From Escherichia coli (GTDB taxonomy: Bacteria; Pseudomonadota; Gammaproteobacteria; Enterobacterales; Enterobacteriaceae): DNA of 64,000 nt. This document shows positions 9,698-59,789 of this stretch, in pieces. Every line of letters starts with the position of its first letter. The first letter of the stretch is position 1. The notes under the pieces were generated by a model. That model did not search any database. It was given only the letters and a program-made list of their open reading frames with translations, and had not been told where the DNA came from. Location of the stretch: NCBI RefSeq assembly GCF_048403405.1, contig NZ_CP183129.1; one strand, written 5' to 3'. Made by a program: the position numbers and the translations under genes.

Positions 9698-10978
9698 TTA
9701 AACGCCCAGACGATCGCGCAGGCTGTAATAAGCCGCGCCCATCGCGGTAAACGGAACGCGCAGCGTGCGCCCGCCGGGGAACGGGTAATGCGGCAGATTG
9801 GCGAAGGCGTCGAAGCGCTCGGCGTCACCGCGCAGCAGTTCAGCAATCAAACGCCCGGCGAGGTGGGTACAGGTGACGCCGTGGCCGCTGTAGCCCTGCA
9901 TGTAGTAGATGTTGGTATCGAGGCGACCAAACTGCGGCATGCGTGACAGGGTCAGCAGGAAGTTGCCCGTCCAGCGGTAATCAATTTTCACGCCCTTCAG
10001 TTGCGGGAAGGTTTTCAGCAGTTTCGGCACCACAAGGCGCTCAACATCGTCCGGGTCGCGTGCGCCGTAGACCACGCCGCCGCCGTACAGCAGGCGGTTA
10101 TCGGCAGTCAGACGGTAGTAATCAAGCAGATAGTTACAGTCTTCAACGCAGTAGTTTTTCGGGATCAGCGAACGGGCTAAATCATCGGAAAGCCGCTCGG
10201 TGGTGATCACCTGCGTGCCGCACGGCATGCTGCGTTTCGCCAGTTCCGGTTCCACTTTATCGCCCAGATACGCATTCCCGGCGACAATCACGTATTTCGC
10301 CGTCACCTGACCTTTGGCAGTTCGCACAACGGCTGGCGTGGTGTGCTGGATCTGCGTCACGGCAGAAAGTTCATACACGCGCCCGCCGTTCAGGCGGATG
10401 GCGTCCGCTTCGCCAATGGCGAGGTTTAGCGGATGAATATGCCCACCGCTGTGATCCAGCAGCGCACCAGTGTAGCGATCGCTGGCGACCTCGCGGCGAA
10501 TAGCGTTGGCGTCCAGCAGCTCCAGCTGTTTATTGCCGTAGCGTTCCCAGTTCTCTTTCTGCTCTTCGAGTGTGGCGAGCTGTTTATCATTCATCGCCAC
10601 AAACAGGCCGCCGGGGCGGTAGTCGCAGTCAATCTGATAACGTTTGATACGTTCGCGGATGATCTCGCCGCCTTCGAACATCATGCTGCCGAGCATACGG
10701 GCGGTGTCCATGCCGTAGTTTTTTTCAATGACGTCGATGTCGCGGCTGTAGGAGTTCACAAGCTGCCCGCCGTTGCGTCCGCTTGCGCCGAAGCCGATGC
10801 GTGAGGCTTCAAGAACCACCACGTCAAAGCCCGCTTCCGCCAGATGCAGCGCGGAAGAAAGCCCGGTATAGCCGCCGCCGACCACGCAAACATCGCAGGA
10901 AATCGACTCATTCAGCGTGTCGAATGGTGCGTATTTATTCGCACTGGCGGCGTAATAACTGCTGGTATGTTCGGTCAT
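9698..10978 (-). CDS. puuB: Gamma-glutamylputrescine oxidase (FAD-dependent)
   Basis: 426-aa ORF with N-terminal FAD-binding GxGxxG (VVGGGYTG); synteny. Confidence 0.88.
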   Translation of the reverse strand: MTEHTSSYYAASANKYAPFDTLNESISCDVCVVGGGYTGLSSALHLAEAGFDVVVLEASRIGFGASGRNGGQLVNSYSRDIDVIEKNYGMDTARMLGSMMFEGGEIIRERIKRYQIDCDYRPGGLFVAMNDKQLATLEEQKENWERYGNKQLELLDANAIRREVASDRYTGALLDHSGGHIHPLNLAIGEADAIRLNGGRVYELSAVTQIQHTTPAVVRTAKGQVTAKYVIVAGNAYLGDKVEPELAKRSMPCGTQVITTERLSDDLARSLIPKNYCVEDCNYLLDYYRLTADNRLLYGGGVVYGARDPDDVERLVVPKLLKTFPQLKGVKIDYRWTGNFLLTLSRMPQFGRLDTNIYYMQGYSGHGVTCTHLAGRLIAELLRGDAERFDAFANLPHYPFPGGRTLRVPFTAMGAAYYSLRDRLGV

Positions 10979-17974: not shown

Positions 17975-19618
17975 ATGCGCCAGGTATTATCGTCTCTTTT
18001 GGTGATTGCTGGACTTGTGAGTGGTCAGGCAATCGCCGCGCCTGAATCCCCCCCGCATGCTGATATCCGCGACAGCGGTTTTGTCTATTGCGTCAGCGGG
18101 CAAGTCAACACCTTTAACCCATCCAAAGCGAGCAGTGGGTTAATTGTCGATACCCTTGCCGCCCAGTTTTATGATCGACTGCTGGATGTCGATCCCTATA
18201 CCTATCGCCTGATGCCGGAACTTGCCGAAAGCTGGGAAGTTCTCGATAACGGCGCGACCTATCGCTTCCACCTGCGTCGCGATGTTCCGTTTCAAAAAAC
18301 CGACTGGTTTACTCCCACTCGTAAAATGAATGCCGACGATGTGGTGTTTACCTTCCAGCGAATTTTTGACCGCAACAACCCGTGGCATAACGTCAACGGC
18401 AGCAACTTCCCCTACTTCGACAGCCTGCAATTTGCCGATAACGTGAAAAGCGTCCGCAAACTGGATAATCATACGGTTGAGTTCCGACTCGCCCAGCCGG
18501 ATGCTTCTTTTTTGTGGCACCTGGCGACCCATTATGCATCGGTCATGTCGGCAGAATATGCCCGGAAGTTAGAGAAAGAAGATCGCCAGGAGCAACTCGA
18601 CCGTCAACCGGTCGGCACTGGACCGTATCAGTTGTCGGAATACCGCGCCGGGCAATTTATTCGCCTACAACGTCATGATGACTTCTGGCGCGGTAAACCG
18701 TTAATGCCGCAGGTGGTGGTGGATTTAGGCTCCGGCGGCACCGGACGTCTGTCGAAACTCCTGACCGGGGAATGCGACGTTCTGGCCTGGCCTGCTGCGA
18801 GCCAGCTATCCATTTTGCGTGACGACCCGCGCTTGCGTTTAACGCTGCGTCCTGGGATGAACGTCGCCTATCTGGCATTTAACACCGCCAAACCGCCACT
18901 AAATAATCCCGATGTCCGCCATGCGCTGGCACTGGCGATTAATAACCAGCGCCTGATGCAATCCATCTATTATGGTACGGCTGAAACGGCGGCCTCTATT
19001 TTACCGCGCGCCTCGTGGGCCTATGACAACGAGGCTAAAATTACTGAATATAATCCGGCGAAATCGCGCGAACAGTTGAAGGCGTTGGGGCTGGAAAACT
19101 TAACGCTGAAACTGTGGGTACCAACACGTTCGCAGGCGTGGAACCCCAGTCCACTGAAAACTGCCGAATTGATTCAGGCGGATATGGCACAGGTTGGCGT
19201 AAAAGTGGTGATTGTGCCGGTAGAAGGTCGCTTTCAGGAGGCGCGGTTGATGGATATGAGCCATGATCTGACGTTATCCGGTTGGGCGACTGACAGTAAC
19301 GACCCGGACAGTTTCTTCCGTCCGTTACTGAGCTGCGCGGCAATTCATTCGCAGACCAACCTCGCCCACTGGTGCGATCCGAAATTCGACAGCGTATTGC
19401 GTAAGGCGCTCTCCTCGCAGCAACTGGCGGCGCGCATCGAAGCCTATGACGAAGCGCAGAGTATTCTGGCGCAGGAATTGCCCATTTTGCCGCTGGCGTC
19501 GTCATTGCGTTTGCAGGCCTATCGGTACGATATCAAAGGTCTGGTACTTAGCCCGTTTGGTAACGCCTCCTTTGCTGGGGTGTATCGCGAGAAACAGGAT
19601 GAGGTGAAAAAACCATGA
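17975..19618 (+). CDS. sapA: Periplasmic substrate-binding protein of Sap ABC transporter
   Basis: 547-aa ORF with signal peptide, family-5 solute-binding protein; first gene of sapABCDF. Confidence 0.9.
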
Positions 19619-23265: not shown

Positions 23266-23302
23266 ACCTCATCCTGACAGGGGCCCCCCTCAGGATGAGG
23301 TG
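23266..23302. terminator. Bidirectional stem-loop between convergent sapF and the MFS transporter gene
   Basis: Perfect 13-bp inverted repeat CACCTCATCCTGA / TCAGGATGAGGTG around a G/C-rich loop, filling the 49-bp gap between two convergent stop codons. Confidence 0.55.
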
Positions 23303-23306
23303 TTCA

Positions 23307-24470
23307 TTACTTTTGATTGTCGATTCTGGTGAGAGCAACCAGCAATGCCAGCGTATAACACACCGTAATTGCCAGACTCATTTTTAACAGTGTTTCTCCG
23401 CCAATTCCCGACAATGGCGCGGCTATACCGCCGAAGACAAACATGCTCATCCCCATCAACGCAGACGCCGTTCCAGATTCCTGCGTCCCTACTGCACTCA
23501 TAGCCTCTGCCCCGCCAACAGTGCCGATGCCGCTACAAAATGCGATGGTGAAAAATAATGCCACCAGTGCCGGAATGGGCAATTGTATCCATGCGCATAA
23601 GACCGTGAGCAATGCACACAAAATTGCCGCTATCAGGCCACCTCGCAACAATGTCATCGCGTTAATCCGTCGCGCCAGGCGCGAGAAGATCCATGAAGCA
23701 ATGATAAGTCCGATGCCGTTAAGGCCAAACACCAGGCTAAATTGCATTGGATTAAAGCCAAATTCCTTCTGCAACACGAACGACGAAGAGCCGATATATG
23801 CAAACAAACCGGCCAGCATAAAACTTTGAATCAGGCAAAAGCGCATAAAACGGCGGTTCTGCACCACGCTTCGTCCGGTTAATAGCAATGATGAGCCCCT
23901 TTTATTTTCTGGCAAGGTCTCATTAATAAATAACAGGCAGCCCAGCAACAGTACGGTGCTAATTTCAGCCATTACCCAGAATAAAGTGCGCCAGTCAAAA
24001 GTGCTGACAATGTACCCGCCCAGCACTGGCGACAACACCGGTGCCAGGCCATTCACCGTCATTAACAGCGCAAAAAACTGGGTCAACGTTACTCCCTGAT
24101 ATTTGTCACGAGCAATAGAACGAGAGAGCACCGAACCACCCGCCCCCGCGATCCCTTGAATAAAACGCCAGACCACCAGCCAGTAAATATTGTTCGTTGT
24201 CGCGCACAAAATGGAAGAAACAATAAACAATAGCAACGACAAGATTAACGGACGTTTACGCCCTATTTTGTCGCTCAGAGGGCCAAATAACAGTTGTCCG
24301 ACGCCAAGACCGATCAGTGATGCAGTCAGCGTTAATTGCGTTATGGTCGTGGTTGCCGCCAGTTGCTCAGACATCTCCGGCAAAGCCGGCAAATAAAGAT
24401 CGGTACACATCGGGCCGATACCGGCTAAAAGACCAAGAATCAATGCCCATGAAAGAGAGACTCTAGCCAT
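23307..24470 (-). CDS. MFS drug/H+ antiporter, Bcr/CflA (DHA1) family, 12 TM
   Basis: 387-aa ORF with MFS signature region GPLSDKIGRKRP and 12 predicted TM segments; 8 bp downstream of the OMF gene. Confidence 0.8.
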   Translation of the reverse strand: MARVSLSWALILGLLAGIGPMCTDLYLPALPEMSEQLAATTTITQLTLTASLIGLGVGQLLFGPLSDKIGRKRPLILSLLLFIVSSILCATTNNIYWLVVWRFIQGIAGAGGSVLSRSIARDKYQGVTLTQFFALLMTVNGLAPVLSPVLGGYIVSTFDWRTLFWVMAEISTVLLLGCLLFINETLPENKRGSSLLLTGRSVVQNRRFMRFCLIQSFMLAGLFAYIGSSSFVLQKEFGFNPMQFSLVFGLNGIGLIIASWIFSRLARRINAMTLLRGGLIAAILCALLTVLCAWIQLPIPALVALFFTIAFCSGIGTVGGAEAMSAVGTQESGTASALMGMSMFVFGGIAAPLSGIGGETLLKMSLAITVCYTLALLVALTRIDNQK

Positions 24471-24478
24471 ATTATTCC

Positions 24479-25852
24479 TTACTTGAGTGATGACATGCCG
24501 CCGCCCAGCGACTGCCAGAGCGTGATTCGGTTTGTAAAATCAGTCAGTTGTAGTGCCAGCAGCGCCTGCTGTGCGCTCCACAAGCTGCGCTGCGCCGTCA
24601 ACACGGTCAGGTAATCACCAACACCCGCCTGATAGCGACGCAAGCCAACATCGACCGTTTGTTGCTCAGCTTTAACATACTGGCGCTGTGCATCCAGTTG
24701 CTCTTCAAGCGTGGTCCGCCGCGCCAGTGCGTTAGCGACATCTTTAAATGCGCTCTGAACGGTTTTTTCATAGGTGGCAATGAGTCCACGCTTTTGTGCT
24801 TCTGCGTAACGAAGCTGCGCCAGATTACTTCCGCCAGTGAACAGCGGTAATGTGACCGATGGCGTAAATGACCAGATCTGCATTCCGTGGCTGAACAACG
24901 ACGACAATGCTTCACTGCCAACACCAGCGCTGGCAGTCAGCGAAATCGTCGGAAAAAAGTTAGCCCGCGCCGCGCCAATATCGGCATTGGCGCTCTTCAA
25001 ATTATGTTCCGCTTCCTGGATATCCGGGCGACGCAGCAGAACGTCAGATGACACTCCCGCAGGAACCAGACTTATCATCTGTTCCGGCAGGCTTTCCAGT
25101 GTTCCCGGTAGCAAATTTTCCTCAAGCGTTGTACCTGCCAGTAAGTTCAGCGCATTTTTATCCTGCATCACTTGTGTCTGATAGCTGGCAACGCTGGCGC
25201 GCGCTTGCTGATAAACACTCATCGCCTCACTGACATCTGTCGCTGCCGCCGTGCCAACCTGTTGCTGGCGCTGGATAATTTTCAATGAGTTTTCTGCACT
25301 GGCCATCGTTTCTTTTGCCAGGGCCAGGTTGCTGTTATCAGCCGCCAGTGTCAGCCAGGCGGTGCTGATTTCAGCAATCAGCGTTAAACGAGTGTTCTGG
25401 GCTGTAAATTCACTGGCAAGCCAGGTTTCCCGCGCCGCCCGAGATAAACTCTGATTACGACCAAACAGATCTAACGTAAAACTGGACACCGTGCCGTCAG
25501 CCTCGGCAGTGGTTTCCGTACCATTCGCCAGCGAACGACTGCGGGTTGAACTTAAGGCCGCATTCACCGTCGGGAATAACGACGCATTAGTTTGCCCATA
25601 GAGCGCCCGTGCTGAGTCAATATCAGCAATCGCTTTTTGCACATCGCGGTTACTGTTCAGTGCAATAGTCACCACCTGCTGCAATCGGGGATCGTGGATC
25701 ACCTGCTGCCAGTCATGGCTGATTGCCTTTCCCTGGCCCTGTGCTCCCGGCAAGGTCGCCGGGATTGGGGATTCAGGCGTGCTGTAGTGGGGCTCGAGCG
25801 AGACACATCCCGCACTCAACAGCACCAGAAAAATAAGAGAACGACGCAACAT
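24479..25852 (-). CDS. Outer-membrane efflux lipoprotein, NodT/OprM family
   Basis: 457-aa ORF with lipoprotein signal (LLSAGC) and OprM-like outer membrane factor repeats; 3 bp downstream of the RND gene. Confidence 0.85.
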   Translation of the reverse strand: MLRRSLIFLVLLSAGCVSLEPHYSTPESPIPATLPGAQGQGKAISHDWQQVIHDPRLQQVVTIALNSNRDVQKAIADIDSARALYGQTNASLFPTVNAALSSTRSRSLANGTETTAEADGTVSSFTLDLFGRNQSLSRAARETWLASEFTAQNTRLTLIAEISTAWLTLAADNSNLALAKETMASAENSLKIIQRQQQVGTAAATDVSEAMSVYQQARASVASYQTQVMQDKNALNLLAGTTLEENLLPGTLESLPEQMISLVPAGVSSDVLLRRPDIQEAEHNLKSANADIGAARANFFPTISLTASAGVGSEALSSLFSHGMQIWSFTPSVTLPLFTGGSNLAQLRYAEAQKRGLIATYEKTVQSAFKDVANALARRTTLEEQLDAQRQYVKAEQQTVDVGLRRYQAGVGDYLTVLTAQRSLWSAQQALLALQLTDFTNRITLWQSLGGGMSSLK

Positions 25853-25855
25853 AAC

Positions 25856-28800
25856 TTACTCCTGACGGCGCGGTTTACCGGCAAACAAACGTTTCACCAG
25901 TACAAAAAACAGAGGAACAAAGAAAATAGCCAGCAACGTAGCGGTCAGCGTACCGCCAATAATGCCCGTACCAATGGCGATGCGGCTGTTCGCCCCTGCG
26001 CCGGTTGCTATCGCCAGCGGCATTACCCCCGCAATAAACGCCAGCGAGGTCATGATGATTGGGCGTAAACGAGTCTGCGCCGCGCGTAATGCCGCACGAC
26101 TCAAGGAATAGCCCTCTGCAACCGCCGCTTCAGCAAATTCCACAATCAGAATGGCGTTTTTCGACGACAAGCCGATAGTGGTTAATAGCGCCACCTGGAA
26201 GTAAACATCGTTGTTTAAATCACGCATCCAGGCCGCCAGCGCCGCGCCAAGAAGCCCCAGAGGGATCACCAGAATGACCGAGAACGGGACTGACCAGCTT
26301 TCGTACAGTGCTGCAAGGCAGAGGAAAACCACCAGAATAGAAACTGCATACAGACTCAATGCCTGACCGCTGGCCAGTTTCTCCTGCAATGACAAACCAC
26401 TCCAGGCCCAGGTTGTTCCCGCAGGAAGACTGTTTGCCAGTTCCTCCATTTTTGTCATTGCATCGCCGGAACTAAAGCCAGTCGCATTTTCCCCCTGAAT
26501 TTCATAGGCTGCAGAACCGTTGTAGCGCACCAGTCTTTCCGGTCCATACAGCCAGCGGGTGGTTGCAAAAGCAGAGAATAGTGTCATGGCGTTATCGCTA
26601 CCGCGCACAAACCATTTACCTAAGTCTGACGGCGTGGAACGAAATTCACTGTCGCCCTGAATGTAGACTTTTTTCACACGACCACGGTCAATAAAGTCAT
26701 TCACATAAGTACCGCCCCACGCACTGGACAGGGTGTCGGTGACATCATTCAAACTCAACCCTAATGACACCGCTTTATTACTATCAATATCTACCTGCAA
26801 TTGCGGCATTTGTGGCAAATCATTGGCACGCACAGAATGTAACTCCGGACTTTGATTCGCTTTTTCTATCAACTGATTACGCATTTGCAGTAGTGTTTCG
26901 CGATCGGTTCCACCGTTAGCTAACAATTCAAACGTAAAACCATTGCTTTGCCCCAGCCCATCAACGGCTGGCGGCGTCATCGCAAATACCGTGGCATCAC
27001 GAATTGTGCCCAGCTCTTTGGTTGCCCGTAGGGCGATAGCCTGGGCGGTGTTTTCTGCCCCTTTACGTTGAGACCAGTTTTTCAACGAAACAAACGCCAT
27101 CCCGGTGTTCTGTCCGCTGCCGCTAAAACTGAAACCATCAACGGTAAAAATGACATCGGTATTTGCTTTCTCATTAATCAGGAACCAGTCAACAATCTGG
27201 CGATTCACTTCTGCTGTACGGGCAGCGGTCGCCCCGGCCGGCAGCGTGTACTGCACCATGATTTCGCCCTGGTCTTCAGTGGGTAAGAAACTGCCCGGCA
27301 GTTTCCACATCATCAGGGCCATTCCACCACCCAGTACGACATAAAGCCCCATCGTTCGAGCAGCACGGCGCAGGACATAAATTACGCCTCGCTGATATTT
27401 ATCTTCAGTACGGCGGTAAAAGCGGTTAAATGCGCCGAAAAAGCCTTTTTTATGTGGCGGAACATGCTGGAGGACGGAACCGCACAGGGCGGGAGTCAAG
27501 GTCAATGCCACTACCACGGAAAGCAGCATTGCGGAGATAATGGTTATCGAAAACTGACGATAAATTACCCCCGTAGATCCCCCAAAGAAGGCCATAGGCA
27601 GGAATACGGCTGACAACACCAGCGCAATGGCAACCAGTGCGCCAGAAATCTCGCCCATTGATTTTTCCGTGGCTTCACGCGCGGGCAACCCTTCGTCACG
27701 CATAATACGTTCGACGTTCTCCACCACCACAATGGCATCGTCCACCAGCAAGCCGATCGCCAGCACCATTGCAAACAACGTCAGGGTATTAATCGAATAG
27801 CCAAACAACGCAAGAACGCCGAATGTGCCCAGCAAAACGACGGGGACAGCTAACGCCGGAATCAGTGTGGCACGCAGGTTTTGCAGGAATAAATACATCA
27901 CGCAAACCACCAATACGATGGCTTCAAACAGCGTCTGAATTACGTCCTCTACAGAGATTTTAATAAATTCAGTGCTGTCTTTCGGGTATGCGATGTCGTA
28001 TCCCTGCGGCATGTTCCGCTGGAATTCGGCAATCTTATCCTTGACCAGCGTCGCCGTATTCAGCGCATTCGCACCGGGCGAAAGCATTACAGCAACCCCG
28101 GCAGACGGGTGACCGTTAAGTTTGCCGATAGCGGTATAATCTTCACTGCCCATCTCAACGCGAGCCACATCTTTTATACGAACAACTGCGCCGTCTGACT
28201 GGCTTTTCACGATAATATTTTTGAACTGATCCACCGTCTGCAAGCGAGACTGCGCACGTACCGTTGCGGTCAGTTGCTGAGTATTCGGTGAAGGCAATGC
28301 CCCTATTTTCCCGGCAGTAACCTGCACGTTTTGCGCTTCAATAGCACTTTGCACGTCTGAAGGCATTAGCGAGTAAGACGCCAGTTTGGCCGGGTCAAGC
28401 CAGATGCGCATAGCGTATTCCGCGCCAAAGACTTGCAGACTCCCCACACCTTCAACACGCGCCAGCGGGTCCTGAACGTTACTAACCAACCAGTCGGCGA
28501 TATCCGAACTGGAGGCTTTGTCAGTGGTGTCATACACGGCAGCAATCAGCAAAAAGTTGCTTTGTGATTTCTCCACCGTAACACCCGTTTGCTGCACTTC
28601 GCTGGGTAGGCGCGACTCCGCCTGCTGAATTTTATTCTGCACCTGAACCTGTGCAGTATCTGGATCGGTACCTTGTTCAAAGGTCACATTAATACTGACC
28701 GAACCATCAGAGCTGCTGGTTGAGCTGAAATAGAGTAAATTATCAAGCCCAGTGAGTTGTTGCTCGATAACCTGAGTCACGCTGTTCTCCAGCGTTTCGG

Positions 28801-28963
28801 CAGAAGCACCAGTATAAGTGGCTGAAATTTTAATGGTCGGTGGCGCAACGTCAGGATATTGCGCGACGGGCAATGTGCGAATAGCCAGAATCCCCGCCAA
28901 CATAATCAAAATGGCGATAACCCAGGCAAAGACCGGGCGGCGAACAAAAAAGCGCGAAAACAT
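25856..28963 (-). CDS. RND multidrug efflux permease (AcrB/MexB/HAE1 family)
   Basis: 1035-aa ORF with clear similarity to AcrB/MdtF but not identical to any K-12 RND pump I can recall; 12 TM plus large periplasmic loops. Confidence 0.9.
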   Translation of the reverse strand: MFSRFFVRRPVFAWVIAILIMLAGILAIRTLPVAQYPDVAPPTIKISATYTGASAETLENSVTQVIEQQLTGLDNLLYFSSTSSSDGSVSINVTFEQGTDPDTAQVQVQNKIQQAESRLPSEVQQTGVTVEKSQSNFLLIAAVYDTTDKASSSDIADWLVSNVQDPLARVEGVGSLQVFGAEYAMRIWLDPAKLASYSLMPSDVQSAIEAQNVQVTAGKIGALPSPNTQQLTATVRAQSRLQTVDQFKNIIVKSQSDGAVVRIKDVARVEMGSEDYTAIGKLNGHPSAGVAVMLSPGANALNTATLVKDKIAEFQRNMPQGYDIAYPKDSTEFIKISVEDVIQTLFEAIVLVVCVMYLFLQNLRATLIPALAVPVVLLGTFGVLALFGYSINTLTLFAMVLAIGLLVDDAIVVVENVERIMRDEGLPAREATEKSMGEISGALVAIALVLSAVFLPMAFFGGSTGVIYRQFSITIISAMLLSVVVALTLTPALCGSVLQHVPPHKKGFFGAFNRFYRRTEDKYQRGVIYVLRRAARTMGLYVVLGGGMALMMWKLPGSFLPTEDQGEIMVQYTLPAGATAARTAEVNRQIVDWFLINEKANTDVIFTVDGFSFSGSGQNTGMAFVSLKNWSQRKGAENTAQAIALRATKELGTIRDATVFAMTPPAVDGLGQSNGFTFELLANGGTDRETLLQMRNQLIEKANQSPELHSVRANDLPQMPQLQVDIDSNKAVSLGLSLNDVTDTLSSAWGGTYVNDFIDRGRVKKVYIQGDSEFRSTPSDLGKWFVRGSDNAMTLFSAFATTRWLYGPERLVRYNGSAAYEIQGENATGFSSGDAMTKMEELANSLPAGTTWAWSGLSLQEKLASGQALSLYAVSILVVFLCLAALYESWSVPFSVILVIPLGLLGAALAAWMRDLNNDVYFQVALLTTIGLSSKNAILIVEFAEAAVAEGYSLSRAALRAAQTRLRPIIMTSLAFIAGVMPLAIATGAGANSRIAIGTGIIGGTLTATLLAIFFVPLFFVLVKRLFAGKPRRQE

Positions 28964-30084
28964 CAGGCGTTGCCTCCATTAGCCTGAACTTCAACAGCCT
29001 TGACGGTCTGCCCTGAAGTGACTTTGGCAGAACCTTCAACAATCAGTCGGTCGCCGTTGTGCAGGCCGTTCAGCACCAGCCATTTATCACCATACGTTTC
29101 TCCCGTTTCGAGCGTTCGCTGCTCTACTTTATTGTCTTTATTCACCACCAGCGCAGTTGCATTGCCTTTAGCATCGCGCGTGACGCCCTGTTGCGGCGCG
29201 AGAATAGCGTCTTCCATCACGCCTTCATCGACACGAGCGCGAACAAACATTCCCGGTAATAACTGCTGTTGTGGATTGGGGAAAATCGCCCGTAATGTCA
29301 CCGAACCGGTAGACTCATCTACAGCGACTTCGGTGAGTTCCAGACGCCCTTTTTCGCTGTAGGTTGTGCCATCTTCCAGAATAAGTGAGACGCTCATGGT
29401 GTCACTGTTGGTCGCCAGTGACTGTTTACGCAGACGTAATAAATCGACACTGGAGCGAGTGAGGTCGACATACATTGTCTCCAGACCACGAATAGTCGTT
29501 AACGCTGTATCTTGCGACGCGGTCACCAGTGCGCCAGGGGTTACCGACGAAATGCCAATTCGCCCTGAAATCGGTGCGGTTACCGTGGTCCAGTCAAGAT
29601 TAATGCGCGCAGTTTCCAGCGCGGCTTTTTTCGCCTCTACACTGGCTTTATCTTGTGCACAGGTAGACTGAGCATCATCAGCATCCTGTTGTGAAACACC
29701 GTTCTCTTTCACCAGTCGGGCATAACGCTGCGCTTTCTGGCAATCGGCTTTTACCAGTGCCTGTGCTTGTTGTAATGCTGCCCGAGCTTCATTCCATGCA
29801 GCCTGATAACTGACCGCATCAATCTGGTAGAGAGGCTGTCCAGCCTTGACCAGATCCCCTTCCTTAAATAAGCGTTTCTGGATAATTCCCCCAACCTGCG
29901 GACGTACTTCAGCACTGAGCGCAGCACTGGTGCGTCCGGTTAATTCACTGACTACCGAGACCGGTTGAGATTTGACTGTAACAACGCCGACTTCTGTTTC
30001 TGACGGGGATGAATTGTTACTTTGCGTATTATCACAACCAGATAAGAGCAGCATTGCCACTACAGATGTTGCTATATACTTCAT
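28963..30084 (-). CDS. RND efflux membrane fusion protein (periplasmic adaptor lipoprotein)
   Basis: ORF track 28963..30117; start refined to ATG 30082-30084 (373 aa) preceded by GGAG; lipobox LLSGC; AcrA/MexA-like; stop overlaps the RND start. Confidence 0.85.
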   Translation of the reverse strand: MKYIATSVVAMLLLSGCDNTQSNNSSPSETEVGVVTVKSQPVSVVSELTGRTSAALSAEVRPQVGGIIQKRLFKEGDLVKAGQPLYQIDAVSYQAAWNEARAALQQAQALVKADCQKAQRYARLVKENGVSQQDADDAQSTCAQDKASVEAKKAALETARINLDWTTVTAPISGRIGISSVTPGALVTASQDTALTTIRGLETMYVDLTRSSVDLLRLRKQSLATNSDTMSVSLILEDGTTYSEKGRLELTEVAVDESTGSVTLRAIFPNPQQQLLPGMFVRARVDEGVMEDAILAPQQGVTRDAKGNATALVVNKDNKVEQRTLETGETYGDKWLVLNGLHNGDRLIVEGSAKVTSGQTVKAVEVQANGGNA

Positions 30085-30111
30085 TATTTTCTCCAGGGTG
30101 AGAAATACCCT

Positions 30112-30131
30112 CCTCATTAAAATTAATGAGG
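30112..30131. promoter_or_regulatory. Candidate TetR-family operator upstream of the efflux operon
   Basis: Inverted repeat CCTCATTAA-aa-TTAATGAGG with perfect 9-bp arms between the TetR gene and the MFP gene; further palindromes at 30169-30184 and 30195-30212. Confidence 0.35.
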
Positions 30132-30232
30132 ATATGTCAGGGATATTCAGTTATAACGAACCCGCATCGCGAAATGAATTTCGCAATGAAATAAGGGGGA
30201 TTAATATCCCCCGCTATTGGTTAATTCTGTTC

Positions 30233-30799
30233 TTATTTATTTATCAACATACTAACAATATCCTGATATATTTCCTGCAGATGTTGTGGATCGCTTTTTT
30301 GCGGTGTTAAACGACGATAAACCGTACCTTCCATCATGGTAGCAAACACTTCAACGCAGCAACGAATGTGCTCGTCGCTAAGATGGGGATGCATTCTTTT
30401 CATATGTGCACAACCGTTAGCGAACATTCTGGCGTCAGCTTCTTCAAGCATTGCCATAACCCGCGGGTTGCGTGTGGCTTCTGCAGCCACTTCCAGCATC
30501 AGCGCGTCGTCGTCCTCATTTAAGGATTTACGCAAGGCAAGGACTTCCGGGAAGTGATCGGTACGCGCGTCAATGTCCATTTGGGCAATACGAAAGTCGA
30601 TGATACGGCGAACCATCTCTTCAATAATGGCGTCTTTGTTGGCGAAGTAACGATATATCTGACCCACGCTAAGCTGAGCTTCGCTGGCAATTTGCGACAT
30701 ACTGGCGGCATGAAACCCGCAGCGACGAAAACACCGACGGGCGGCGTTAATGATTTCATCCTGACGCTGTTTGTGGCGTATCTCCAGCTTGCTGGTCAT
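30233..30799 (-). CDS. TetR/AcrR-family transcriptional regulator
   Basis: ORF track 30233..30898; start refined to ATG 30797-30799 (188 aa) preceded by AGGAGA; N-terminal TetR HTH (SMSQIASEAQLSVGQIYRYFANKD). Confidence 0.8.
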   Translation of the reverse strand: MTSKLEIRHKQRQDEIINAARRCFRRCGFHAASMSQIASEAQLSVGQIYRYFANKDAIIEEMVRRIIDFRIAQMDIDARTDHFPEVLALRKSLNEDDDALMLEVAAEATRNPRVMAMLEEADARMFANGCAHMKRMHPHLSDEHIRCCVEVFATMMEGTVYRRLTPQKSDPQHLQEIYQDIVSMLINK

Positions 30800-31276
30800 T
30801 TCTGTCTCCTGGCCTATCACTTGGTGAGAATGATCGTTCTCATTTTTGCTGATTATACGTTTCTCCAAAGTAATGGAAAGTATTTTTATCTTATTCATGG
30901 TGCATATTCTGATAATGAAGAGATTGTGGAGATTATGTGAAGATAGTTGACAATATTAAGTTGGGGTCAATTCATCAGAAAGGCTGCTACTTGTTGTCGC
31001 CAGTTCTGTTTTCATCATCAAACTTATCGGAGCTAATACGAATAGTTTCAGAGTCAGATTCTATAAGATATTCCCCCAACCTACCCCTTGCAGGCGTCAA
31101 GAGTAGATAACGCAAAATGCTCTGTACCGCAGCTTCTCTCCGGTACAGAAAGCGCAACTATAGCCACCCACAGCCAGGTTGATTATAATAACCGTTTATC
31201 TGTTCGTACTGTTTACTAAAACGACGAATCGCCTGATTTTCAGGCACAACAAGCATCAACAATAAGGATTAAAGCT

Positions 31277-48668: not shown

Positions 48669-51307
48669 TTATTTTTTCCCTTCAACCCATTTGCCATCAA
48701 CATAAAATGCTGACCAGCCAGTCGCCTTTCCGTCTTTTTCCGAAGAGACATATTGCTGTTTGGTTTTACGGCTAAAGCGAACCATGGTCTTATTACCTTC
48801 CGGATCCTGCTGTGGCGCATCGGCCAGATAACGCAGTTTTTCCGGCAGACGGTCGCGGAAGCGATAAAGCTCTTCCACCAATGGCGCGCGTGTTTCACGC
48901 GATTTCGGGAAGGTATTGGCCGCCAGGAACACACCGGCAGCACCGTCACGCAGCACGAAATAGGCATCTGATTTTTCGCACGGCAGCTCCGGTAATGGCA
49001 CCGGATCTTCCTTCGGTGGTGCCACTTCGCCGTTACGTAAAATCTTACGTGTGTTTTTACACTCTTCGTTAGTGCAGGCCATGTATTTACCGAAACGTCC
49101 CATTTTCAGGTGCATTTCAGAGCCACATTTTTCACACTCAACGATCGGGCCGTCATAACCTTTAATGCGGAATTCGCCCTCTTCGATCTCGTAACCGTCG
49201 CAGGTTGGGTTATTACCACAGACATGCAACTTACGTTTCGGATCGATGAGATAGCTGTCCATCGCCGTGCCGCATTTCGGGCAACGACGTTTTGCGCGCA
49301 GCGCGTTGGTTTCAGCGTCTTCACCTTCCAGCACGTTCAGCACTTCGTTTTCCGGCACCAGGTTGATGGTGGTTTTGCAACGCTCTTTCGGTGGCAGAGC
49401 GTAGCCGGAACAGCCAAGGAATACCCCGGTGCTCGCTGTGCGAATACCCATTTTGCGACCACAGGTCGGGCAGTCGATGCTGGTCAGAACCATCTGGTTC
49501 GGGCGCATCCCCCCTCTTCCGGATCTTTTTCAGCTTTATCTAACTGCTGGGTGAAATCCGAGAAGAAGTGATCCAGTACAGCTTTCCACTCTGCTTCGTG
49601 ATTTGCCACCTGGTCGAGGCTGTTTTCCATCTGTGCGGTGAAGTCGTAGTTCATTAACTCACGGAAATTCTCTTCCAGGCGATCGGTGACGATTTCGCCC
49701 ATTTTTTCCGCATAGAAACGACGATTTTCTACTCGCACATAGCCACGATCCTGAATGGTCGAAATGATCGACGCATAGGTAGACGGACGACCGATACCGC
49801 GTTTTTCCAGCTCTTTAACCAGCGATGCTTCACTAAAACGGGCTGGCGGCTTGGTAAAGTGCTGGGCTGGTGTCAGTTCAACGAGCGTCAGAGCATCGCC
49901 TTTATCGACTGCCGGTAATATACGATCTTCATCGCCTTTACGCAGTGCAGGCATCACTTTTGTCCAGCCATCAAAGCGCAAAATACGACCGCGTGCTTTC
50001 AGGCGGAAATCGCCCGCACCAACGGTCAGCGTCGTGGAGTCATATTTCGCTGGGGTCATCTGGCAGGCAACGAACTGACGCCAGATTAACTGGTACAATT
50101 TTTGCGCATCTGCTTCCATATCCTTCAACGATTCCGCCATCACATTGACGTCAGAAGGACGAATCGCTTCGTGCGCTTCCTGTGAGTTTTCTTTGCTGGC
50201 GTACTGATTCGGACTTTCCGGCAGATATTTCTTACCAAAATTATCGCTGATATAACCGCGAACCATATTTACCGCGTCCTGACTCAGGTTGGTGGAGTCG
50301 GTACGCATGTAAGTGATATAGCCTGCTTCATACAAACGCTGCGCCATCATCATGGTTTTTTTCACGCCAAAACCAAGACGGGTGCTGGCAGCTTGTTGCA
50401 GCGTAGAGGTAATAAAAGGAGCGCCAGGTTTACTGGTTGTCGGTTTGTCTTCACGTTCCAGCACGCTGTAGCGCGCTTTTTCCAGCAGACTTACCGCAGC
50501 CTGTGTTTGTTCTTTGTTGACCGGGCGGAACGGTTTGTCGTTCTGATGAGTCACCTGCAACGCCAACGCATCACCAGATGGCGTGGTCGTGCTGGCATCG
50601 ACTTCCCAGAACTCTTCCGGTACGAACGCTTTAATTTCACGCTCACGCTCGACCACCAGGCGGACCGCCACCGACTGCACACGACCTGCAGACAGACCAC
50701 GAGCGATCTTTTTCCACAGCAGCGGCGAAACCATATATCCCACCACGCGGTCCATAAAGCGACGCGCCTGCTGGGCATTAACACGATCAATATTCAGCTC
50801 ACCTGGTTTGTTAAATGCCTGGCGGATCGCGTTTTTAGTAATTTCGTTAAACACCACTCGGCTATAGCGCGCATCATCACCACCAATCACTTCCCGCAGG
50901 TGCCATGCAATGGCTTCCCCTTCGCGGTCAAGGTCGGTTGCGAGATAGATGTGGTCGGCTTTTTCAGCCAGTTGTTTCAGTTCAGAGACGACCTTCTCTT
51001 TACCAGGCAACACTTCATAGTGCGCCTCCCAATTGTGCCACGGGTCAACCCCCATACGGTTGACGAGAGCGCCACGTTCATCCTTTTTAGGCTTTTTAGC
51101 CGTCTTGGTGGAGGTAGAGTCGGCACTCTTTTTGGCAGCTGAGCCACTGGTCGGCAAATCGCGGATGTGACCGACGCTGGATTTCACCACGTAGTCACTA
51201 CCCAGATACTTGTTGATCGTTTTGGCTTTTGCCGGGGACTCAACGATGACAAGAGCTTTACCCATATTCACCTTACCTAATTTGATTCTTCCAGGAATGC
51301 GTCGCAC
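48669..51307 (-). pseudogene. topA: DNA topoisomerase I, reading frame interrupted by an apparent single-nucleotide frameshift
   Basis: Two adjacent minus-strand ORFs (49484..51307, 607 aa with the TOPRIM/catalytic core; 48669..49508, 279 aa with the Zn-ribbon C-terminal region) overlap in different frames at a C6 run (49509-49514). Could be a genuine mutation or an assembly error. Confidence 0.7.
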
Positions 51308-51896: not shown

Positions 51897-51936
51897 ATAA
51901 ATATCCTCCGGCATAGCCGGAGGTTTTTCAAATGCG

Positions 51937-52640
51937 CCTATAAGGCTCTCTTACCAGCCGCGCCCTAACAGGCGCACACGATCTGACATTTGCATCCAAC
52001 TTCGTTACTTACGGCCCGTAAACGGGCTGCCCGGATAGGGAATCGATAACTGCTCTCCCATTTTATCCTCTTCAAGCTGGTGCTTTATGTAATCCTGTAT
52101 CTTCGCCGTGTTCTTACCCACCGTATCGACGTAGTACCCTCTGCACCAGAACTCCCTGTTCCTGTATTTGAATTTCAAATCACCAAACTGCTCGTAAAGC
52201 ATCAGACTGCTTTTCCCTTTCAGATATCCCATAAAGCCGGATACGCTCATTTTGGGCGGGATCTCCACAAGCATATGGATATGATCTGCACAGCATTCAG
52301 CTTCCAGAATCCGTACACTTTTCCACTCACACAGCTTTCTCAAAATACTGCCTATTGCTCTACGCTTCTCTCTGTAGAACACCTGTCTTCGGTATTTTGG
52401 CGCAAAAACTATGTGATATTTACAGTTCCATCGGGTGTGCGCTAAGCTCTTTTCGTTCCCCATTGGGACCCCCTTTTGATTTCTTGTTTGACACTTGCAG
52501 TTGCCAGACCGCAAGGTGTTTTAACAAATCAAAAGGGGTTTTAATAACTGGCTTAAAGCTGAAAGCTTTCCGGAACCCCCAGCCTAGCTGGGGGTTTTCT
52601 GTGCACAAACAAAACGCGAGGTCTTAGCCTCGCGTTTGTC
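51937..52640 (-). mobile_element. IS200-like insertion sequence (IS200/IS605 family), approximate boundaries
   Basis: Contains a Y1 transposase gene plus the characteristic stem-loops (52576-52596 and 52611-52636); not present between yciN and sohB in K-12. Ends estimated from the expected ~0.7 kb size. Confidence 0.7.
52005..52463 (-). CDS. tnpA: IS200 transposase TnpA (HUH Y1 transposase)
   Basis: ORF track 52005..52514; start refined to ATG 52461-52463 (152 aa MGNEKSLAHTRWNCKYHIVFAPKYRR...), HxH motif (HIHMLVEIPP). Confidence 0.85.
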   Translation of the reverse strand: MGNEKSLAHTRWNCKYHIVFAPKYRRQVFYREKRRAIGSILRKLCEWKSVRILEAECCADHIHMLVEIPPKMSVSGFMGYLKGKSSLMLYEQFGDLKFKYRNREFWCRGYYVDTVGKNTAKIQDYIKHQLEEDKMGEQLSIPYPGSPFTGRK

Positions 52641-55308: not shown

Positions 55309-55617
55309 TCAAGCGGCAATAGCGAAATTCAGAATACGTGTAATCTCATTCAAATGTCCCGGATATGCTTCATGATTCTCAGCGTCAACATCTTCAATAA
55401 ATAATATCAGTTCAGTAATTAACGCATTAGCATCGTCATAATTTATCCCGGCTAACTCTGGCGAAGTTTCAGTACCATAGTTAATCGTCAGGTTGTTCAT
55501 AACTGTGAGGATATGGATAAAATATTTATGACAAACATTACATGTGGTTTTATTACCCAAAGTATTATACAGCATATCAAGTAATGCCAATATTCTACGG
55601 TTTTGCACATCGTTCAT
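55309..55617 (-). CDS. Hypothetical small acidic cytoplasmic protein (102 aa), function unknown
   Basis: ORF with ATG start 6 nt after an AGGAGG Shine-Dalgarno that overlaps the stop of the upstream lipoprotein gene; AT-rich; no family recognised. Confidence 0.6.
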   Translation of the reverse strand: MNDVQNRRILALLDMLYNTLGNKTTCNVCHKYFIHILTVMNNLTINYGTETSPELAGINYDDANALITELILFIEDVDAENHEAYPGHLNEITRILNFAIAA

Positions 55618-55627
55618 AAAAAGCCTC

Positions 55628-56629
55628 CTATAACATTATTCCGCTGGCAATAAGTAATTTTGCCAGCCCCTCAGACGCCTTTAACCCACTAATGACCTGT
55701 GCGCGTAATATTTCATTTAATCTTTTTTGTTCAGCTGCCGTGCGTGTTTTATTAACGTATAAGCTTTTTAGATAATCACCCTTATCTATAAAGGCATTTA
55801 AAGCCTCAATCGCAGGCATGGCAGGTGCCGATGCCTGTAGTCTGGTTTCATTCACATTGATTACTGAACTTAGAAACTCCTTCCTGTTTTTCAGAGTGTT
55901 AAACTCTGTATTCTTAGAGTTTTTAGATGCTGTATTATAATAAAACATATTATCATGCACATTCGCAAAGGTATAATTTTCAATCTTATTGCTTTTTGTA
56001 TAAATATCATTGCGCAAAACCGCCATGTTCTTTATAAGTCTTACCCAGTTTTCATCTGCCGTTTTGCCTATTTTTCCAGAATTGACTTTAATTATATATA
56101 ACTCATTGAAATAATTTACCAAATCTTTAACCGCTGCTGCAGATTGAGCTAAATCTTTGCTATGTGAAACACCAAGTAGTGTTTGTGCGTTGTTTGCGTG
56201 ATCCAGAGCCTGTTTAAGTAATGCCACTTGCTGACTTTCCGTAGTTGCCATATCCTTTGTCAGAAGTTCCACATAAGCGCTCATGCTATTAATGACTTCC
56301 ATTGAAGCCAGTAATTTTTCTTTCTCGAAAGGGACTAATTGTACTTGTTTTGTATTTGGCCCTGAACGCTGGCATAATTTTCCGCCATTCCCATCACCGC
56401 CTATATCAATGGTATAATCAGGTCGCAATGCACAATCCGGATTAGTCGCGTAGAAATTAACAAGGAAGTTTTCACGAGAAGCATAGTATTGTTTAAAGAA
56501 ACTTGCATTCGCCGCTACTGCTTTGTTACCCGCAGTAATAACAGTTTCAGCTTGTTCGTTTTTCAATGCTTCAGTTGCACAACCTGAAAGCATTAACAGC
56601 GATAGAAATATTCCACTATATCTAATCAT
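55628..56629 (-). CDS. Hypothetical lipoprotein (333 aa), function unknown
   Basis: ATG start with SD GAGGTG; signal peptide plus lipobox LMLSGC (Cys17); N/K-rich, AT-rich coding sequence; no family recognised. Confidence 0.65.
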   Translation of the reverse strand: MIRYSGIFLSLLMLSGCATEALKNEQAETVITAGNKAVAANASFFKQYYASRENFLVNFYATNPDCALRPDYTIDIGGDGNGGKLCQRSGPNTKQVQLVPFEKEKLLASMEVINSMSAYVELLTKDMATTESQQVALLKQALDHANNAQTLLGVSHSKDLAQSAAAVKDLVNYFNELYIIKVNSGKIGKTADENWVRLIKNMAVLRNDIYTKSNKIENYTFANVHDNMFYYNTASKNSKNTEFNTLKNRKEFLSSVINVNETRLQASAPAMPAIEALNAFIDKGDYLKSLYVNKTRTAAEQKRLNEILRAQVISGLKASEGLAKLLIASGIML

Positions 56630-57884: not shown

Positions 57885-59789
57885 TTACCAGCCACCGCCG
57901 CCTCCGCCACCTGCACCGCCACCAGCACCACCACCGGAATAGCTACGCCCCAACAAACTGGTATAGGCCCCGCAACTCAGGTGCGTCTGTAATGAGAATA
58001 AAACGCCACTACGGGCAATTTCCGGGGCGCGAACAGCCGCTGTGAGTGATGGGGTGATACGTGCTGCCCATTCTCTGCCAAGGTTTGCCGAGACCGCCCA
58101 ACCTAACAACGCGTAATCCAGTTTCCGTGTTTCCCCTTTCCGCCGCCGCCCACTGTGTGTTGCTGCCTCTTTACGCGCAAGATAGTTAACGATAGCTTCA
58201 CCGTGGACATAACGTTGCTGCCCAGTTTGGGTAAACTTTGGCAGAAAAATATACCCCAAGCCAGTGAGATAACCGGTCAGGACAACAGCGCTAAAATAAC
58301 CCGCTGGCATATACCAGTAAAAGAATACATCTCCGACATTGATATAGAGAGAATAAAAGGCCACGCCTGAACAAATCAGCGGTAAAAACAAAGTGATGAT
58401 TACACGATTAACGCAAGGCTTGTCATCATCGCGGGCAAACACAAGCTCAAGGGAACAAAATAAAAAAGGAAGAAGCCAGCAGATCATAATAAACATATCG
58501 CCCACCAGACTCATTCCTGCCCAGCCTACGGGACTCAGGTTACCGTAGAGAATGACCGCTAATATCGCCATTCCCCCCCATTGCAAAAACGCATCAGGTC
58601 GGTAAAACGAAGACTTTTTACGCGGCAGATAAAATTTCTGCATCCGTAAAAATGCCCTGCGTAAGACTCTGTTGCGTCTCCCCGTAAGAACGACCTTATC
58701 GCCTTTACGAAATAACGCTTCCAGTAATAACTGCTCTGCGGGCAGTAATACCGCATTATTTCTGGTCGCGCCTTCATTAACACGAATCAGGATTTGCTGG
58801 TTCTTATCATACTGATCTTCCAGATGAATTTTGCCTTTCACAATCAGATTTACGATATCGGCACAAAAACCTTTATCGTCGTAAACCAGCTTCGCATCGA
58901 GACGTAACATGCCGGGCGTGTAATCTGGCGGAATGACATCGGTTTCAATCACATCTACCGGCGTAAATTGCGGCCTGCGCTTCCAGAGATATAACCATCC
59001 ACAAACCAGGAATAGACACGGAAACCAAATTAACAACGATGACGTGGAGGGTAAAAGAAGATGGCTGAAAATATTCGTCGTTTGTGGAGCCGGGGCATTG
59101 CTAAGTAAAGCGTGAGGCCAGCGGTAGAGTACCGTGAAATCTTCACGATAAAACGGATCGCGGGATTCAATTCTTCCGTCCTCAAGGATGCGGCCATTTC
59201 GATATGTGTCGCCCTCTTCTCCAGTAAAGAGATCGATTTCGCTAAATGGATTACCCGCGATATCAGGGAACTTGAGTGAAAATCGGGTCTTATAGATTTC
59301 AAACGGCCAGTGGTTACCGGTCACGTTCCAGATTAACAGATCTGAATCTCCCTCACGCAGGAAAGCATTTTTAACCTGATAATGAATTTGATAATGATAG
59401 TCGCCTTGAGGCAAGAAACGTTGTTTATCGCCCACGACGATACTCATTAAACCGATATGCCAGTCAAGATGCCAGGGTTCAGGAACACCATCACGGGTGA
59501 CGCCAACAATATGATAGTTCAGCAGTGCAGCGTCCCCATCAGGCTGCATCCAGAGTCGTGGTAAATCACGATAAAATCCGTGCTTAATCTGCTGATTTCG
59601 CGCCTGAAAATGAATATTTTCTTTGATGTCGAGCCCCCCATCCGGTTGCAGAGTGGCTTCAACATCAAAGAGCGAGATCCCTTCTTCATAAAAAGGGATC
59701 TCCGTGTTTTTCGGATAACTCAACGAAGAGAAAAAAGCCCAACTATCAACAGCAAAATGCAGCGATATATCCCTGCCATAGTCTTCCAT
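57885..59789 (-). CDS. yciQ: DUF2207-family inner-membrane protein
   Basis: 634-aa ORF with multiple TM segments and a Gly/Ala-rich C-terminal tail; synteny. Confidence 0.85.
   Translation of the reverse strand: MEDYGRDISLHFAVDSWAFFSSLSYPKNTEIPFYEEGISLFDVEATLQPDGGLDIKENIHFQARNQQIKHGFYRDLPRLWMQPDGDAALLNYHIVGVTRDGVPEPWHLDWHIGLMSIVVGDKQRFLPQGDYHYQIHYQVKNAFLREGDSDLLIWNVTGNHWPFEIYKTRFSLKFPDIAGNPFSEIDLFTGEEGDTYRNGRILEDGRIESRDPFYREDFTVLYRWPHALLSNAPAPQTTNIFSHLLLPSTSSLLIWFPCLFLVCGWLYLWKRRPQFTPVDVIETDVIPPDYTPGMLRLDAKLVYDDKGFCADIVNLIVKGKIHLEDQYDKNQQILIRVNEGATRNNAVLLPAEQLLLEALFRKGDKVVLTGRRNRVLRRAFLRMQKFYLPRKKSSFYRPDAFLQWGGMAILAVILYGNLSPVGWAGMSLVGDMFIMICWLLPFLFCSLELVFARDDDKPCVNRVIITLFLPLICSGVAFYSLYINVGDVFFYWYMPAGYFSAVVLTGYLTGLGYIFLPKFTQTGQQRYVHGEAIVNYLARKEAATHSGRRRKGETRKLDYALLGWAVSANLGREWAARITPSLTAAVRAPEIARSGVLFSLQTHLSCGAYTSLLGRSYSGGGAGGGAGGGGGGGW

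Follow-up and report, generated by a model that had tools for sequence, protein, structure and literature searches.

A topA gene split at a one-base-short G run in Escherichia coli, most probably through a homopolymer consensus error

In the 64-kb stretch of Escherichia coli DNA analysed here (the window), topA, the gene for DNA topoisomerase I, is broken by the loss of a single base from a homopolymer. The break is most probably a leftover miscall of homopolymer length in the consensus of an assembly that is otherwise good and based on long reads, and no biological feature. The true genome would then have seven G at this site (C7 on the + strand) and encode topoisomerase I as an intact protein of 865 aa. 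One base of the G7 run would have been lost in the base-calling or polishing of long-read data, and nothing biological would be taking place at topA 49509-49514. A dropped homopolymer base is the commonest residual error type in long-read assemblies. The error is favoured because the relatives of the window have intact genes, the assemblies that share its C6 run are error-laden, and the same loss recurs in noisy long-read data; that the window is otherwise clean speaks against it. The original prediction had offered two alternatives, a sequencing or assembly error and a genuine C-terminal truncation. Its gene identity, site and one-base repair all stand, and between the alternatives the evidence favours the error.

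The broken gene and its two fragments

The gene occupies 48669-51265 on the minus strand, starting at the ATG at 51265, in the neighbourhood cysB - topA - yciN - IS200C - sohB. It is 2597 nt long against the normal 2598 and, by its translation, is thus frameshifted. The lesion is a C run at exactly 49509-49514 (G6 on the coding strand, codons 584-586; C7 in the closest relatives), which reads GGGCGCAT CCCCCC TCTTCCGG on the + strand. The sequence agrees with the prediction that the frame breaks at this run, that the N-terminal part ends in CARTRWF and a stop, and that the rest of the protein continues in another frame from 49508. The N-terminal ORF (49484-51265, minus strand; 593 aa, 66.9 kDa) encodes native residues 1-586, the tail CARTRWF and the out-of-frame stop TGA at 49486-49484; the mechanical ORF list gives it as 607 aa, counted from an upstream GTG. 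The 597 N-terminal codons of the prediction are a miscount, as there are 586 native codons, or 593 aa with the tail, and the slip may go back to 1ECL, the crystallised fragment of 67 kDa, which is 597 residues long. The C-terminal ORF (48669-49508, minus strand; 279 aa, 31.3 kDa) runs from the ATG at 49508 to 48669, encodes native Met587-Lys865 with EGKK at its end, and overlaps the 593-aa ORF by 25 nt. A Shine-Dalgarno-like purine tract, GGAAGAGGGGGG (49509-49520, minus strand), abuts ATG587 on its upstream side.

Insertion of one G into the run restores a 2598-nt topA ORF of 865 aa, as had been predicted. The repaired gene is identical, in DNA and in protein, to topA of E. coli MS 69-1, the nearest complete genome, where the gene is annotated as intact (WP_001309471.1), and its product matches full-length E. 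coli topoisomerase I (PDB 4RUL) over residues 2-865. After addition of one G, therefore, the gene is the same as that of E. coli TopA (4RUL, WP_001309471.1) and stands in the usual order cysB - topA - yciN - sohB. Unlike intact E. coli topA, the gene in the window is one base short and consists of two ORFs as written. The C6 in topA is no chance feature, being a one-base difference from a gene that is otherwise identical in the closest relatives.

The two ORFs divide the enzyme into its catalytic and zinc-binding parts. The N-terminal fragment comprises domains D1-D4 ('TOP67') with the active-site Tyr319, and an identical 593-aa product has Pfam matches to Toprim (PF01751) and Topoisom_bac (PF01131); this catalytic core matches both 1ECL and 4RUL. 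The C-terminal fragment ('TOP30C') contains three 4-Cys zinc ribbons and two ribbon-like domains, with Pfam matches to Zn_ribbon_Top1, Zn_ribbon_bTOP1 and Zn_Ribbon_Topo. All 12 ribbon cysteines (599, 602, 619, 630, 662, 665, 683, 689, 711, 714, 731 and 736) are accounted for. A single 865-aa chain carrying both core and ribbons is not encoded as written, the ribbons being intact in the other frame. The TOP67 constructs (1ECL, residues 1-597; 1MW8, residues 1-592) and TOP30C divide D1-D4 from D5-D9 at nearly the same place. Compared with 1ECL, the N-terminal fragment in the window ends at native residue 586, is 11 residues shorter, and bears the 7-residue out-of-frame tail.

Closest relatives and the quality of the assembly

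Compared along its full 64 kb with the complete MS 69-1 genome (CP146675), the window shows just three differences. One is the topA base; the others are a synonymous SNP at 55590 and, in puuB, an indel of 10 bp. The SNP is a G to A change (CTG to TTG, Leu10) in a gene for a 102-aa hypothetical protein; the A is found in the window only, all 14 relatives compared having G. The indel, at 9861-9870, consists of 10 bases (AGGTGGGTAC) that are present in the window and missing from MS 69-1. In MS 69-1 this deletion lies between AGGTG direct repeats and turns puuB into a frameshifted pseudogene, and the copy in the window is free of it. Because the A at 55590 is private, the window represents a separate isolate of the clone to which MS 69-1 belongs. 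That it might be an older draft of MS 69-1 was considered and rejected on the strength of the 10-bp puuB indel and the private SNP seen against the 14 sequences.

The original prediction had also called for comparison with topA of close relatives, and in all six of the closest complete genomes (MS 69-1, 4621, TUM14771, TUM1226, OX030728 and GN02461) the gene is one base longer. Direct reading confirms C7 in TUM14771 and MS 69-1. The difference is thus a one-base change, C6 against C7, in a run of at least six bases relative to near-identical genomes, which is the form that a homopolymer artefact takes.

A distinct isolate with a private SNP could also carry real private mutations. A genuine and very recent -1 replication slippage in the G7 run of this isolate, truncating TopA after residue 586, is an unlikely explanation but one with several observations on its side. 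The change at 55590 is at least one other private difference, and G/C runs of 7 are by nature prone to slippage. The window also lacks a local error signature. The 16 other runs of at least seven bases, including the C7 runs at 18048 and 58573, are the same as in MS 69-1, as are all eight other G/C runs of 6; the trpE C6 run at 61893 matches both MS 69-1 and the intact genomes. Comparison of these runs with MS 69-1 revealed no other homopolymer error within the 64 kb. Both this absence of accompanying errors and the private change at 55590 count against a miscall. Against a mutation stand the intact genes of the six closest relatives and the absence of secondary decay from the 840 nt downstream, where the C-terminal ORF has no changes relative to MS 69-1. 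Without further changes in that ORF, there is no sign that topA is decaying.

The type of assembly bears on how such a pattern is to be read. Between yciN and sohB lies an IS200C element of 709 bp (51898-52606, tnpA on the minus strand), an element present in 11-26 copies in related genomes. The contig spans this multi-copy sequence, and it was therefore almost certainly built with long reads or finishing. The insertion at yciN/sohB is common to the closest relatives and is not found in other lineages. Consensus errors in long-read data cluster in long homopolymers, those of G/C above all. The window assembly is much cleaner than those whose C6 is clearly artefactual. In a polished long-read assembly, one leftover error in 64 kb would be ordinary, and a single real mutation would look just the same.

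Shortened runs in complete genomes and other public assemblies

A query of 86 bases centred on the run matched 5,420 RefSeq complete E. coli genomes. The identical C6 86-mer occurs in three of these, B1.H1.18, B1.H1.1 and UID2309220031, and in none of the remaining 5,417 with a match. Both this rarity and the fact that the three C6 cases have other homopolymer deletions argue against a real mutation. In the two C6 assemblies checked (B1.H1.18 and UID2309220031), the NCBI annotation pipeline PGAP labels topA as 'frameshifted'. Within 40 kb of topA it also flags trpE and yciQ as frameshifted in B1.H1.18, and pdeR, trpE and trpB in UID2309220031. Those of the extra frameshifts that were mapped, by alignment to the window, each come down to the loss of one base from a short run of G or C (trpE C6 to C5, yciQ C7 to C6 and pdeR GGG to GG).

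As a control, the trpE C5 and yciQ C6 variants were searched for in the RefSeq complete genomes. The trpE C5 variant is found in 5 of 5,408 genomes overall, yet in 3/3 of those with topA C6, and yciQ C6 in one RefSeq genome, B1.H1.18. The co-occurrence of topA C6 and trpE C5 points to poor homopolymer calling or assembly quality and not to independent mutations. It is a matter of observation that the window has the C6, that one base repairs it exactly, that it is rare and that elsewhere it accompanies error-laden assemblies; from this we infer that the window's own assembly made the same miscall. The trpE C6 (61893-61898) and yciQ C7 (58573-58579) runs are themselves further sites of recurrent false frameshifts in public 'complete' E. 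coli genomes; both are intact in the window.

The lesion resembles known homopolymer errors of nanopore, PacBio RS and 454-era data, which likewise consist of one-base deletions in a G/C run of 7. Assemblies known to contain such errors are hit at the topA site alongside trpE C6 to C5, yciQ C7 to C6, T7 to T5 and A5 to A4, and receive the PGAP label 'frameshifted'. Unlike these clear-cut cases, the window has the topA base as its sole such discrepancy in 64 kb.

Among public assemblies more broadly, the 279-aa C-terminal fragment is called as a gene of its own on hundreds of contigs. The exact 593-aa N-terminal fragment is found on 57 contigs, recorded from Logan and ENA assemblies only. Look-ups of both fragments and of a neighbouring 333-aa protein yielded no contig that combines IS200C beside yciN with a broken topA, and the GTDB species-representative genomes gave no exact match to a 44-mer. 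The same one-base loss is present in at least four unrelated lineages, at 0, 30, 52 and about 70 mismatches from the window over topA-cysB, and it occurs there alongside other homopolymer indels. In one affected lineage, the run is normally G6T and is found as G5T, and one assembly has lost two bases from the run. Several such records have topA broken at further places, or acnA broken. Contigs with an identical 593-aa product come from the read-set series ERR15941xxx, SRR30896xxx and ERR11861xxx, in which splits of yciQ, cobO, trpE, acnA, lapB and rluB vary between runs; sibling contigs differ from one another by T7/T5 and A5/A4. In some E. coli lineages, the same Gly-Gly pair is encoded by GGT GGT, so that there is no homopolymer. 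Because the same loss appears across lineages, the accompanying splits vary by run and GGT GGT alleles exist, the G7 run of topA is a recurrent site of false frameshifts in noisy data and not a conserved switch.

Variation of the run between public assemblies (G7, G6 and G5) would also be expected of a phase-variable contingency locus, and the heptamer G_GGG_GGA, which lies in the zero frame across codons 584-586, has the form of a programmed -1 frameshift site. That the topA run is either is scarcely credible, and an evolved switch is effectively refuted. Most assemblies with a shortened run, where their surroundings were examined, carry other homopolymer indels, and the run-length polymorphism that phase variation would produce in good genomes of one lineage was not seen, the variants falling mostly in indel-bearing assemblies. 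As a housekeeping gene, topA is also unlike the surface or restriction-modification genes that undergo phase variation, and the lineages with GGT GGT have no run to vary. The 88 nt downstream of the run, searched for a stimulatory structure, fold no better than shuffled sequences (z = -0.93). A two-frame arrangement is not conserved, since 6/6 of the closest relatives are in frame and the C6 sequence is limited to 3/5,420 complete genomes. Programmed frameshifting was rejected on these two grounds, the missing downstream structure and the missing conservation.

Other features of the window vary between lineages. The yciQ gene (57885-59789, minus strand) has A6 at 59724-59735 both in the window and in MS 69-1, against A7 in other lineages; read on the coding strand, this is T7 to T6 some 16 codons from the start of the gene. 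PGAP labels yciQ of MS 69-1 as 'frameshifted'. The gene can still be read as an ORF of 634 aa if an ATG further upstream is used, or give the 627-aa product typical of this allele if translation starts downstream. An error shared with MS 69-1 was considered for this site and rejected, the 627-aa product being called in several other NCBI assemblies as well; from this comparison, a real lineage polymorphism is more likely. Between cobO and rluB, at 55309-56629, are adjoining genes for proteins of 102 aa and 333 aa, with no recorded Pfam match. The 333-aa protein has a lipoprotein-like N-terminus and is very widespread in E. coli assemblies; the lineage of B1.H1.18 and UID2309220031 is without the pair, and there cobO adjoins rluB. 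At about 23300-30800, in the sapF-fabI interval, the window lineage has a five-gene block encoding a TetR-family regulator, an RND adaptor, an RND permease, an outer-membrane factor and an MFS transporter, whereas the B1.H1.18-type lineage has only ycjD at this position.

Consequences of a real frameshift and practical value

If the frameshift were real, the isolate would be left with a TOP67-like protein that cleaves DNA without relaxing it, and thus with little or no topoisomerase I activity, an outcome no more probable than the unlikely mutation itself. On their own, the N-terminal domains cut and reseal DNA without being able to relax supercoils (PMC4678816), and Top67 fails to complement in vivo (PMC10187895); both results weigh against a genuine mutation. 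Survival would call for compensation through lower gyrase activity, or through more topoisomerase IV or topoisomerase III, and is to be considered just as doubtful. Such compensation has precedent, in that topA-null E. coli grow once compensated, their growth requiring gyrA or gyrB substitutions or amplification of parC-parE (PMC6160223). The gyrA, gyrB, parC and parE genes are all located outside the 64-kb window. Real topA frameshifts can also be selected in the laboratory, as seen in the experimental evolution of a cya strain, where suppressor papillae yielded viable frameshifts near the C-terminus of topA that lower TopoI function (PMC8546631). These speak for a real mutation and against a miscall. 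Literature searches for topA frameshifts arising naturally in a homopolymer gave no relevant result, and no report of a natural isolate with this lesion came to light.

A real frameshift might also leave topoisomerase I function largely preserved, which we consider very improbable. Two routes can be envisaged. In one, the N-terminal fragment and a C-terminal fragment initiated at Met587, with the purine tract as ribosome binding site, would associate in trans. In the other, occasional -1 slippage of the ribosome on G_GGG_GGA, or of RNA polymerase on the G run, would yield the exact wild-type protein. A viable natural two-piece topoisomerase I, with TOP67-like and 31-kDa halves reassembled in trans and possibly helped by -1 slippage, has only a slight chance of being correct, and a functional split or recoded TopA would make up a small subset of the already improbable real mutation, one with little prospect of applying here.

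Some features of the site are consistent with this idea. The frame is interrupted in the D4-D5 linker; D5, whose first residue is Q591, has few contacts with D4 (PMC4678816). The tract GGAAGAGGGGGG before ATG587 is predicted to form an anti-Shine-Dalgarno duplex of -7.0 kcal/mol, compared with -5.8 at the native topA start, both energies being purely predictive estimates of pairing with the 3' end of 16S rRNA. In the zero frame, the heptamer G_GGG_GGA conforms to the pattern X_XXY_YYZ, and a -1 shift on it reads E-G-G-M-R-P, which is the native sequence. The Shine-Dalgarno-like tract and the heptamer could together soften the lesion, a consideration relevant only if the frameshift is real. Ahumada and Tse-Dinh reportedly observed in 2002 that a purified Zn-domain fragment partly restores relaxation when added to Top67. 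Against preserved function, it presupposes a real frameshift, the split is not conserved in any relative, and a stable structure downstream is absent (z = -0.93). Runs of six G are, moreover, poor slippage sites compared with long A/T runs.

If the missing base is an artefact, as is favoured here, its value is modest and practical. The G7 run at codons 584-586 would be a site at which long-read assemblies repeatedly show a false pseudogene, and it should be verified before any claim of 'topA inactivation', and together with the nearby trpE C6 and yciQ C7 runs it provides a quick marker for unpolished homopolymers. If the frameshift is real, the window would represent a natural E. coli isolate without an intact topoisomerase I. 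It would then be relevant to how essential topA is outside laboratory conditions, and to the question of whether the enzyme's catalytic half and its zinc-ribbon half can function as separate chains in vivo.
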